Assembly: GCF_054482525.1 (NCBI RefSeq)
Contig: NZ_CM137006.1
DNA length: 64,000 bases
Strand: one strand, 5' to 3'
The position numbers are program-made. This document shows, one piece after another, positions 3,001 through 6,000 of the stretch. Position 1 is the first letter of the stretch, and each line of letters begins with the position of its first letter.

Positions 3001-6000
3001 ATACCGATTACGTGAGTAATGAATCAGGGACGCTTTCGCGATTATTTAAACTACCTCAGCATGGGACCACCGTCCGCACAGAATTGATTGCGGGGATGAC
3101 CACTTTTTTAACCATGGTGTACATCGTTTTTGTGAATCCGCAAATCCTCGGCGCGGCACAAATGGACCCGAAAGTGGTGTTTGTTACCACCTGTTTGATT
3201 GCCGGTATCGGCAGTATTGCGATGGGGATATTTGCTAACTTACCCGTGGCGCTGGCTCCGGCAATGGGGCTGAACGCCTTCTTTGCGTTCGTGGTCGTGG
3301 GGGCGATGGGTATCTCCTGGCAGACCGGGATGGGCGCGATATTCTGGGGCGCAATTGGGCTATTTTTGCTCACGCTATTTCGTATCCGGTACTGGATGAT
3401 CTCCAACATTCCATTAAGTTTACGTATTGGTATCACCAGCGGAATCGGATTATTTATCGCCTTAATGGGATTAAAAAATACTGGCGTTATTGTCGCCAAT
3501 AAAGACACCCTGGTGATGATTGGCGATTTAAGTTCTCACGGCGTGTTGTTAGGTATTTTAGGGTTTTTTATTATAACCGTGTTGTCATCACGTCATTTTC
3601 ATGCCGCGGTGCTTGTTTCTATTGTGGTGACGTCTTGCTGTGGCTTATTTTTCGGTGATGTTCATTTTAGCGGCATCTATTCCATTCCGCCTGATATTAG
3701 CGGCGTCATTGGTGAAGTAGATTTGAGCGGCGCGTTAACACTTGAACTCGCCGGTATCATTTTCTCCTTTATGCTGATCAACCTATTTGATTCATCAGGA
3801 ACATTAATTGGTGTAACTGATAAAGCTGGCTTAATAGATAGTAACGGTAAATTCCCCAATATGAATAAGGCGCTGTATGTTGATAGCGTCAGTTCGGTGG
3901 CGGGTGCGTTTATCGGCACCTCGTCTGTTACCGCCTATATTGAAAGTACTTCTGGTGTGGTGGTCGCACGGGGCTGACGGCTGTCGTGGTCGGCGTTATG
4001 TTCCTGTTAGTTATGTTCTTCTCACCGCTGGTGGCGATGGTTCCTCCTTACGCAACCGCCGGAGCGTTAATCTTTGTTGGCGTGCTGATGACTTCGAGCC
4101 TGGCGCGCGTTAACTGGGATGATTTTACCGAATCGGTGCCCGCATTTATTACCACGGTGATGATGCCCTTTACTTTCTCGATCACCGAAGGGATTGCACT
4201 CGGCTTTATGTCGTACTGCATCATGAAAGTGTGCACCGGGCGCTGGCGCGATCTGAACCTGTGTGTGGTGGTGGTCGCAGCTCTGTTTGCACTGAAGATT
4301 ATTCTGGTGGATTAGTAACTGGCGAGGGTTTCCAGATATCATGAGTTCTGATTACGCAGGAGAACTCATGATCTGGATAATGCTCGCCACGCTGGCGGTA
4401 GTGTTTGTGGTTGGTTTTCGGGTGCTGACATCCGGGGCCAGAAAAGCGATTCGCCGTCTCAGCGATCGGCTGAATATCGATGTCGTACCCGTGGAGTCGA
4501 TGGTCGATCAAATGGGAAAGTCAGCCGGTGACGAATTTTTACGTTATTTGCATCGCCCGGATGAGTCGCACCTGCAAAATGCCGCGCAGGTATTGCTCAT
4601 CTGGCAAATTGTCATTGTCGATGGTAGCGAACAGAACCTGCTGCAATGGCATCGGATTTTACAAAAAGCCCGCCTTGCCGCTCCCATTACCGATGCTCAG
4701 GTCAGGCTGGCGCTGGGTTTTCTGCGCGAAACCGAACCTGAAATGCAGGATATTAATGCTTTTCAGATGCGCTATAACGCGTTCTTTCAGCCTGCCGAGG
4801 GCGTTCACTGGCTGCATTAAAACCGCTTCGTCTTATCAGCCTACAGACCGCGCCTGACCTGTAGGGTGGATAAGGCGTTCACGCCGCATCCGGTATCGGA
4901 ACTGACAGTAGGTGAACGCATTATCTACGTTCTATTTACAGCAGCACCTCCAGCCCGTGTTTTTGCACAATGCTGAGCAGTTTTAATGAAATGCCATTGG
5001 GGCGTTTAGCGCCACTTTCCCATTTTTGTACAGTTGAAACGCTGGTATTGAGATAGTGAGCGAAGACGGGCTGACTCACTTTTAATTTTTCCCGCAGTGC
5101 TTTTATCTCAACAGGTTGTAAGTCTTGCACGCTGGTCAGGCAGGCTTTGTCAAAAGTACGCATCGTTTCGGCAGAAATAGCATCGACGCTGGACAATCCA
5201 GCCGCTGCGCTGTGAATAGCCTCAAATGCAGGACTTTTAAATTTAGTTTTTGCAGTCATAGCAGATCTCTGTCAGTTCTTTAGTGTTAATCATTGCTGTT
5301 AGTTGGGCTTTCGTCAGGAAGCCATAATGCTTTGCAATTTCACGAAACCCAGCCAGTTCCTGACTATTGATGTTCGACATATCCTGTTTTGCATATAAAA
5401 ACGTGTAAAACCAATTACTTCCCCCTTTCGCCAGAATAATTGCACGCTCACGATTTTGGTGAAGGCGCTTTTTAAAAACGCCACCGCCAAGTGCATCAGC
5501 TTTACCTTGTTCCGTTTCTAAAATGGCCCGGCACAACTCTTCATCTGTTATTGCATGAGACCTGGCTTCACTTGCAAACCATTTGGTTTTAAACACGCGC
5601 ATATCGTTGAGATCCTGTTATTAAAGTATATCACCAAGTGCAATACTTTATCCCTTGTTCCCAACACAATCGCGAAAATACATATCACCTTGCCCTATGA
5701 TTTTTATTTCTTCGAGCAGCCTCGAACTTTTCCCACAACACCGTAAAAGTTGCAAAAACGTTAAATGCGTCACACATTTCAATGTTAAAGTGGTCGGCTT
5801 TTCCCCTGAAACATGCCACGGGTAACACCATGAGTGAATTTATTGCCGAAAACCGCGGCGCGGATGCCATCACCCGACCGAACTGGTCAGCCGTTTTCTC
5901 GGTGGCGTTTTGCGTCGCCTGTCTGATTATCGTTGAGTTTTTGCCCGTCAGTTTGTTGACGCCAATGGCCCAGGATTTAGGCATTTCGGAAGGGGTTGCC

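Follow-up and report, generated by a model that had tools for sequence, protein, structure and literature searches.

A HigB-2/HigA-2-type toxin–antitoxin pair beside nepI, probably an old chromosomal resident deleted in K-12-type Escherichia coli

Two small genes between yicN and nepI, in a 64,000-nucleotide stretch of contig NZ_CM137006.1 (RefSeq assembly GCF_054482525.1), probably form a chromosomal type II toxin–antitoxin (TA) operon of the HigB-2/HigA-2 type, which is an old resident of the nepI side and was deleted in Escherichia coli of the K-12 type. We refer to the whole stretch as the window, and all positions without a locus label are positions in it. The first-pass annotation, made from the window's sequence, had placed two overlapping open reading frames (ORFs) of 119 and 107 residues on the minus strand at 4936-5602, and these coordinates proved exact. 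The toxin-first layout that it described was also borne out, with the toxin gene lying 5' of the antitoxin gene:

5243-5602, minus strand: toxin gene of the HigB-2 type within the RelE superfamily, 119 residues, ATG start (ORF list and Pfam PF06296)
4936-5259, minus strand: antitoxin gene, 107 residues, ATG start, HigA-2/YiaG-like (ORF list and helix-turn-helix matches)
5243-5259, minus strand: overlap of 17 nt between toxin stop and antitoxin start (read from the sequence)

The DNA of this region (4936-5602) is 100% identical to that of E. coli PCN033 (NZ_CP006632), where RefSeq names the two products "type II toxin-antitoxin system RelE/ParE family toxin" and "helix-turn-helix domain-containing protein". 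The pair is already annotated in generic terms, and it is an uncharacterised member of a known TA family that will not surprise specialists. A literature search returned no paper on the nepI-adjacent pair of E. coli. We can discount chance as the origin of these ORFs, because about 20 other Enterobacterales genomes contain a 119/107-residue pair with the same 17-nt overlap, at ratios of nonsynonymous to synonymous substitution (dN/dS) between 0.03 and 0.17. The overlap encodes I-C-Y-D-C-K-N-stop in the toxin frame and M-T-A-K-T-K in the antitoxin frame. It is kept in 18 of the 22 homologous loci, the rest having a 23-nt overlap or a truncated toxin, and we read it as predicted translational coupling. 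The conserved C-terminal motif of the toxin (I-C-Y/H-D-C-K) and the conserved N-terminus of the antitoxin (M-T-A-K) are encoded by the same nucleotides, 5243-5259. Since these nucleotides also carry the antitoxin start, part of the conservation of the toxin motif may reflect dual coding rather than toxin function.

The toxin and its antitoxin

The upstream protein had been described as basic and RelE/ParE-like, and both attributes hold. Its isoelectric point is 9.0, and residues 1-113 match model positions 1-120 of PF06296 ("RelE") with an E value of 3.9e-40. PF06296 was the only Pfam family matched at E values up to 10; PF05015, PF09907, PF15723 and PF05016 gave no match. Vibrio cholerae HigB-2 belongs to PF06296, a family with toxin-first gene order (PMC11980606), and the sequence of HigB-2 (identical at 110 of 110 residues to PDB 5JA9_C) matches this model with an E value of 3.3e-8. 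The earlier label HigB/HigA-like was right as to the type of TA system. It can be narrowed to HigB-2/HigA-2-like and does not extend to HigBA of Rts1, as neither PF05015 nor PF09907 was matched.

The fold prediction leads to the same family. An alignment-based AlphaFold2 (AF2) model of the toxin, with a predicted local distance difference test score (pLDDT) of 86.9 and a predicted template modelling score of 0.80, consists of a beta-alpha-alpha-beta4 core followed by two C-terminal helices and a last strand. When this model was compared with the PDB by Foldseek, the top 10 matches were all V. cholerae HigB2 chains (probability 1.0, template modelling scores of 0.52-0.62). The next neighbours were Streptococcus pneumoniae HigB, the ribosome-dependent RNase Cami1, E. 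coli/Shigella HigB and RelE. Structures of E. coli HigB were distant matches (E 0.14-0.3), and ParE1 appeared only at rank 27 with an E value of 0.38.

The activity of HigB2 depends on R51, R64, Y82 and K84, plus K49 (PMC5416850, PMC10098735). In a profile-sequence alignment by hhalign, which agrees with the Pfam model, residues K44, R46, R53, Y70 and K72 of the toxin align with HigB2 K49, R51, R64, Y82 and K84. Among 37 homologues with identities down to 34%, conservation of K44, R46, R53 and K72 is complete or reaches at least 90%, and position 70 is either tyrosine or phenylalanine. All five active-site residues of HigB-2 are predicted by this alignment to have equivalents in the toxin. The protein belongs to a subfamily of PF06296 with a short loop and a long C-terminus that is widespread in Enterobacterales. 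All orthologues begin with MRVFKTKWF at the ATG used here for the 119-residue toxin. PGAP places the start at GTG codon 3 (5243-5596, 117 residues), because in alleles of the O157 type, described below, the ATG is replaced by ATA.

The antitoxin consists of a conserved N-terminal segment (about residues 1-45) and a C-terminal XRE-type helix-turn-helix (HTH) (about residues 46-103), in agreement with the first-pass annotation. The domain matches are HTH_3 and the C-terminal domain of MqsA, and the best sequence match in the PDB is V. cholerae HigA-2 (5JAA, E 8e-10, residues 46-102). The NCBIfam models NadS, MqsA-family and PRK10072 were all matched below their cutoffs; for the MqsA-family model TIGR03830 the score was 41.1 bits against a cutoff of 61.8, and only the C-terminal half of the model was aligned. 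The 107-residue sequence contains neither CxxC pairs nor a zinc ribbon. The N-terminal segment has no sequence similarity to the N-terminus of HigA-2. It carries a motif of its own, EAIHSAA.GL....AI..ETMR.FD..C, which is still recognisable in pairs whose toxins are only 33% identical. In an AF2 model of a toxin-linker-antitoxin fusion, antitoxin residues of about 9-40 form two helices with pLDDT values of about 88-95.

The yicN-nepI interval

In the annotation of K-12 MG1655 there is nothing between yicN and nepI, as the first-pass annotation had stated, and this interval measures 210 bp in K-12 and 1009 bp in the window. From this difference the pair had been taken for a small strain-specific insertion. 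The alignments contradict that view. Two features describe the difference:

4896-5735, no strand assigned: 840-bp segment for which K-12 MG1655 and UTI89 have a 41-bp filler (pairwise alignment and BLAST)
5500-5518, minus strand: toxin codons for ETEQGK that survive as a relic in K-12 (BLAST, E 0.011)

Homology between the window and K-12 ends at 4895 within a hairpin of a repetitive extragenic palindromic (REP) element (left junction 4895/4896) and restarts at 5736. Comparison of the K-12 and window junctions revealed no target-site duplication and no clean empty site. Instead, the 41-bp filler of K-12 contains ATCGAAACGGAACAGGGCAAAGAT (coding strand), which reads I-E-T-E-Q-G-K-D in frame. 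This relic spans 19-24 nt in the toxin frame and corresponds to toxin codons 28-35 in the same order and orientation, with 17 of 19 nucleotides identical and both differences synonymous. Only toxin alleles of the Escherichia type match the filler, and none of 500 shuffled sequences reached the observed match. Since the short K-12 interval retains an in-frame piece of the toxin gene, we conclude that K-12 carries a deletion. K-12 (phylogroup A) and UTI89 (phylogroup B2) have exactly the same filler although their flanks differ by 3.4%.

The arrangement in other species points in the same direction. In a scan of one genome per species, the order nepI-TA-yicN was found in Escherichia sp. E1V33, E. 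coli E69, Citrobacter amalonaticus, Klebsiella indica and K. michiganensis. In Salmonella the pair (STM3777/STM3778) adjoins nepI, and yicN does not lie on its far side. Synonymous divergence (dS) between genera is saturated, and dN/dS between species is 0.03-0.17 for both genes. For the toxin alone, comparison with other species gives 0.07-0.17, and comparison within E. coli, where there are very few substitutions, gives 0.25-0.53. These ratios indicate that both genes are under purifying selection. Given the synteny across genera, the saturated dS, the relic and the filler common to K-12 and UTI89, the pair appears to have been at this site ancestrally, and the K-12 type appears to be a deletion allele that is old and shared. 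As read from the alignments, the polarity is therefore the reverse of that implied by an insertion: the window holds the intact ancestral state. This case is a reminder that "absent from K-12" need not equal "inserted".

Within E. coli the pair is nonetheless accessory, as the first-pass annotation had implied. Among 5426 complete E. coli genomes, 1716 carry it with at least 95% identity, always as one chromosomal copy at the nepI site and never on a plasmid; K-12 is without it. The short interval of the K-12 type occurs in 3668 genomes of this set; roughly two in three complete E. coli genomes, K-12 among them, have the shared deletion allele. The carriers include O145:H28 and the clinically important O157:H7, sequence type 131 (ST131) and porcine extraintestinal pathogenic strain PCN033, and the pair is missing from the laboratory K-12 and B strains. 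Because K-12 lacks the locus, it offers a natural clean background in which the pair could be tested. A separate, larger deletion was seen in E. coli SC434 from soil (L049, 3150-3190); it runs from inside the REP element to within the 5' portion of nepI, of which a truncated pseudogene remains.

The carriers differ at the start of the toxin gene. In O157:H7 EC4115 the toxin gene has ATA in place of the ATG start and AGGAC in place of AGGAT as its Shine–Dalgarno sequence (window 5600 and 5612; L050 5701 and 5713). This ATA/AGGAC allele probably attenuates toxin translation, and would then be a natural variant with predicted toxin attenuation. A different kind of variation was considered in strain HS-02 (NZ_CP172818; L003 2400-3300), the one exception to the 95% identity, where a copy of only 78% identity, in which PGAP calls the toxin frameshifted, could be mistaken for a decayed intermediate. 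We rejected this candidate, as the differences consist of homopolymer smearing (T, C and G tracts) between perfect flanks; the HS-02 copy looks like a local artefact of assembly or polishing.

Beyond nepI, the window contains a single ORF of 3705 residues (7216-18333) in place of yicS. The product is an IatC-like inverse-autotransporter adhesin whose immunoglobulin-like repeats, about 30 in number, lie in tandem. The RefSeq record of PCN033 divides this ORF into two coding sequences, and window and record differ by 8 gaps over 11.7 kb. The TA pair occurs together with iatC in PCN033 and JNEC-KY178. We rejected a linkage between the pair and this adhesin island, since O157:H7 and ST131 carry the TA pair with yicS-nlpA as in K-12.

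Related modules have also moved between genera. A bare cassette of about 740 bp, which begins about 72 bp 5' of the toxin start codon and ends with the stop codon of the antitoxin gene, is 85-95% identical in nucleotide sequence among Edwardsiella ictaluri, Erwinia psidii, Enterobacter, Pectobacterium and Pluralibacter (L007-L038, about 2928-3670), and in several genome pairs the similarity stops exactly at the cassette ends. The proteins of the Erwinia, Edwardsiella, Pectobacterium and Pluralibacter copies are 92-97% identical. More distant relatives of the toxin were found by tblastn on plasmids of Rhizobiales, Pseudomonas, Legionella and Coxiella. The pair was absent from the phage genomes searched.

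Candidate operator, promoter and flanking DNA

Upstream and downstream of the two genes we identified the following elements:

5622-5650, minus strand: candidate operator, an inverted repeat TAAAGTATTGCAC-TTG-GTGATATACTTTA with 13-nt arms that are 85% complementary (repeat search)
5625-5633, minus strand: putative extended -10 element TGaTATACT in the right operator arm (read from the sequence)
5613-5616, minus strand: Shine–Dalgarno sequence AGGA, 10 nt 5' of the toxin ATG (read from the sequence; ACAGGAT is kept in homologues)
4826-4929, no strand assigned: hairpins of the REP type in the spacer where yicN and the antitoxin gene converge (self-complementarity and folding, -37 kcal/mol on either strand)
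5736-5829, plus strand: conserved block upstream of nepI, outside the TA module (100% identical to K-12; multi-genus alignment)

The candidate operator lies 20-48 nt 5' of the toxin ATG. Alignment of the upstream regions of 23 homologous loci recovered the consensus palindrome TAGCAC-N3-GTGCTA, and in 29 of the fetched loci (L042 2956-2970, L043 2958-2972, and 27 others) the exact palindrome is present a single time, always 28-42 nt 5' of the toxin ATG. Among these are loci of Thiohalobacter and Burkholderia, whose toxins are only 33% identical to that of the window. Judged from these alignments, the conservation is unusually deep for a putative operator of a TA family. The Escherichia version of the core (5629-5643, TTGCAC-TTG-GTGATA) is two mismatches from the consensus and has longer outer arms. 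Further copies of the operator were not found in the 64-kb window beyond chance. The region of the antitoxin recognition helix, NTS.ST.QKWE.G, is almost invariant in homologues, and this near-invariance corresponds to the conservation of the palindrome. The occurrence of TAGCAC-N3-GTGCTA across distant Proteobacteria provides a ready-made candidate binding site for the study of this antitoxin subfamily.

The putative extended -10 element is kept in homologues as TGcTATAGT or TGcTATACT, with no good -35 element in the window. A scan for consensus sigma-70 promoters and intrinsic terminators found none at its thresholds, so that we infer the promoter from the -10 element read by eye and from its conservation. 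The operator of HigA-2 is likewise one inverted repeat over the -10 element (PMC11006873).

V. cholerae HigBA2 and Coxiella ToxP/AntitoxP suggest, by analogy, how such an operon would work. The antitoxin would dimerise via its HTH, bind the inverted repeat and repress the operon, and its N-terminal segment would fold onto the toxin and neutralise it. If the labile antitoxin were depleted, the free toxin would enter the ribosomal A site and cleave translated mRNA, and growth would stop.

On one side the pair is flanked by yicN (DUF1198, plus strand), which ends at 4820. The REP element that had been placed at 4830-4898 is real, and its hairpins extend over about 4826-4929. Part of it (4864-4929) matches the REP-derived Rfam family naRNA4 below threshold, with 32.9 bits. 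This hairpin begins 7 nt beyond the stop codon of the antitoxin gene and probably serves as a 3' end or stabiliser. On the other side nepI (NCBIfam NepI equivalog, 849 bits) starts at 5830, divergent from the toxin gene. Alignment of the nepI-toxin intergenic region with Salmonella, Citrobacter and Klebsiella shows two conserved blocks, one comprising the operator and promoter and the other proximal to nepI. No operator-like site was found in the nepI-proximal block. This block (5736-5829) contains GCAAAAACGTTAAAT, which we take to resemble loosely a PurR box. The neighbours of the pair are core transport and metabolism genes and not a defence island; in PADLOC-DB the toxin matches no defence-system family, and the antitoxin gives only generic HTH matches (RmrA, HTH_VI).

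Alternative explanations and known relatives

Several results weigh against the assignment to a functional HigB-2/HigA-2-type operon. Neither a search of PDB sequences with the toxin (phmmer) nor one with a 37-sequence profile reached HigB2 or anything else at E values up to 1, and the pairwise profile alignment of toxin and HigB2 by hhalign is weak (E 0.013). Because direct sequence searches fall short, the link between the toxin and HigB2 rests on Pfam and on the fold. The beta2-beta3 loop of the toxin subfamily is about 6-7 residues shorter than in the Pfam model and its long-loop members, and 11 shorter than in HigB2, and the C-terminal extension is longer than in HigB2. The predicted contact between toxin and antitoxin comes from a single-chain fusion model that yields pLDDT values and secondary structure. 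The Escherichia operator deviates from the family palindrome at two non-symmetric positions. The antitoxin is better conserved than the toxin, with 78-85% against 67-72% identity to other genera. The O157-type ATA allele is present in 467 of the 1716 carriers (identical in 76 of 76), including O157:H7 and O145:H28. Finally, the sole report on STM3777, in a paper since retracted, described growth of E. coli that was attenuated only slightly.

Some of these observations would suit a domesticated or attenuated module, in which the HTH protein survives chiefly as a transcription factor that acts on its own operon and perhaps on host genes such as the divergent nepI, and the toxin is weak or being lost. 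The greater conservation of the antitoxin, the mutated toxin start and Shine–Dalgarno sequence of the 467 genomes and the slight inhibition reported for STM3777 all fit this idea, as do truncated toxin variants in protein clusters, the long residence of the module beside nepI and the orphan YiaG-like HTH proteins of K-12 (PMC11980606). We nevertheless consider it unlikely, since the active-site equivalents are all intact in the window allele, the dN/dS values of the toxin, both between species and among the few substitutions within E. coli, are not those of neutral drift, and operator-like sites are lacking in the nepI-proximal block and, beyond chance, elsewhere in the window. A related and rather unlikely scenario is that the pair has been inherited vertically since before the split of Escherichia, Salmonella, Citrobacter and Klebsiella, and that the polymorphism between intact and deleted alleles persists through an acquired host function, such as regulation of nepI by the HTH protein with the toxin tuned down; the degenerate Escherichia operator and the loss of the start codon in O157:H7 would be the signs of such tuning. 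Quite improbable, in our estimate, is a role selected for abortive-infection defence against phages, with the same biochemistry, instead of stress response or locus stabilisation. TA systems of the RelE/ParE superfamily are increasingly linked to defence (PMC11980606), and presence/absence polymorphism in E. coli would suit fluctuating selection, but the PADLOC-DB results, the core-gene surroundings and the absence from phage genomes speak against it.

It is very improbable that a mobile TA cassette entered the yicN-nepI spacer, beside the REP element, as a recent and strain-specific insertion. This view would account for the lack of the pair in K-12, and related cassettes of about 740 bp do move among Enterobacterales, with relatives on plasmids. 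Such an event is difficult to reconcile with a single copy at the same site in all 1716 carriers and never on a plasmid, with saturated dS among groups that share the nepI-TA-yicN order (cryptic Escherichia, Citrobacter, Klebsiella) or, in Salmonella, the nepI-TA order, or with an intergenic operator block that can be aligned across genera. It would also leave unexplained the toxin relic in K-12 and the exchange of 840 bp for a 41-bp filler with neither target-site duplication nor clean empty site. That the toxin could be a ParE-like poison of DNA gyrase rather than an mRNA endonuclease is scarcely credible. RelE and ParE share a common fold, and the RefSeq name says merely "RelE/ParE family toxin"; however, the toxin matches PF06296 only and not PF05016, the structures nearest to its fold are mRNases (HigB2, S. 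pneumoniae HigB, Cami1 and RelE) with ParE far down the list, and the basic catalytic residues of HigB2 are conserved. We therefore retain the HigB-2/HigA-2-type operon, old at nepI and deleted in the K-12 type, as the probable explanation. Its practical value is small. The TA family to which this uncharacterised E. coli locus belongs includes well-studied relatives. What is useful are the corrections to family assignment and evolutionary polarity, and the conserved operator.

Among the known systems, experimental support exists for two members of the family, V. cholerae HigBA2 (PMC5416850, PMC11980606) and Coxiella ToxP/AntitoxP (PMC10098735). V. cholerae HigB-2/HigA-2 (VCA0468/VCA0469; PDB 5JA8, 5JAA, 8A0X) shares with the pair described here the family PF06296, the toxin-first order, the active-site equivalents and a single inverted repeat over the -10 element, and provides both the closest solved toxin fold and the closest solved antitoxin HTH sequence. 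The two toxins are only about 20% identical, which is below detection by direct sequence search. The window toxin has the loop HQNRE where HigB-2 has ASKGKGKRGGS, and it has about 25 extra C-terminal residues that form a second helix and a strand. The N-terminus of the window antitoxin is predicted to form two helices, whereas that of HigA-2 forms a helix plus a strand. The operators differ as well (TGTACGC-N5-GCGTACA for HigA-2, TAGCAC-N3-GTGCTA for this family), and the Vibrio pair is an integron cassette, in contrast to the syntenic chromosomal resident of the window.

The positional orthologue of the pair is STM3777-STM3778 of Salmonella Typhimurium, which appears in lists of type II TA systems of the RelE superfamily. 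It lies divergent beside nepI and encodes proteins of 119 and 107 residues with a 17-nt overlap and 67% toxin identity, but its far flank is a sugar phosphotransferase system cluster and not yicN. The ToxP/AntitoxP pair of the Coxiella burnetii plasmid QpH1 (CBUA0028/CBUA0027) is also of the HigBA2 type. For this pair toxicity, rescue, translation inhibition, binding of toxin to antitoxin and promoter binding have been demonstrated (PMC10098735). Coxiella plasmids are among the tblastn matches of the window toxin. In contrast to the window pair, ToxP/AntitoxP is plasmid-borne, distant in sequence and has a role in plasmid maintenance.

The relE-yiaG modules (Gerdes 2025, PMC11980606) likewise combine a PF06296 toxin with a YiaG/HigA2-like antitoxin encoded downstream. 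In YiaG-type antitoxins two N-terminal helices are predicted to contact the C-terminal helices of the toxin (PMC11980606), and the two antitoxin helices in our fusion model would agree with such a toxin-binding segment. The toxins of those modules have disordered N-terminal extensions, and the window toxin has none. HigBA of Rts1/Proteus, HigBA of K-12 (ygjN-ygjM) and MqsRA resemble the pair in their toxin-first order, a toxin of the RelE superfamily and an antitoxin with an XRE-type HTH. In contrast to the window toxin, the HigB toxins of Rts1 and K-12 and MqsR belong to the families PF05015, PF09907 and PF15723, and MqsA contains an N-terminal zinc-ribbon domain that the window antitoxin lacks.

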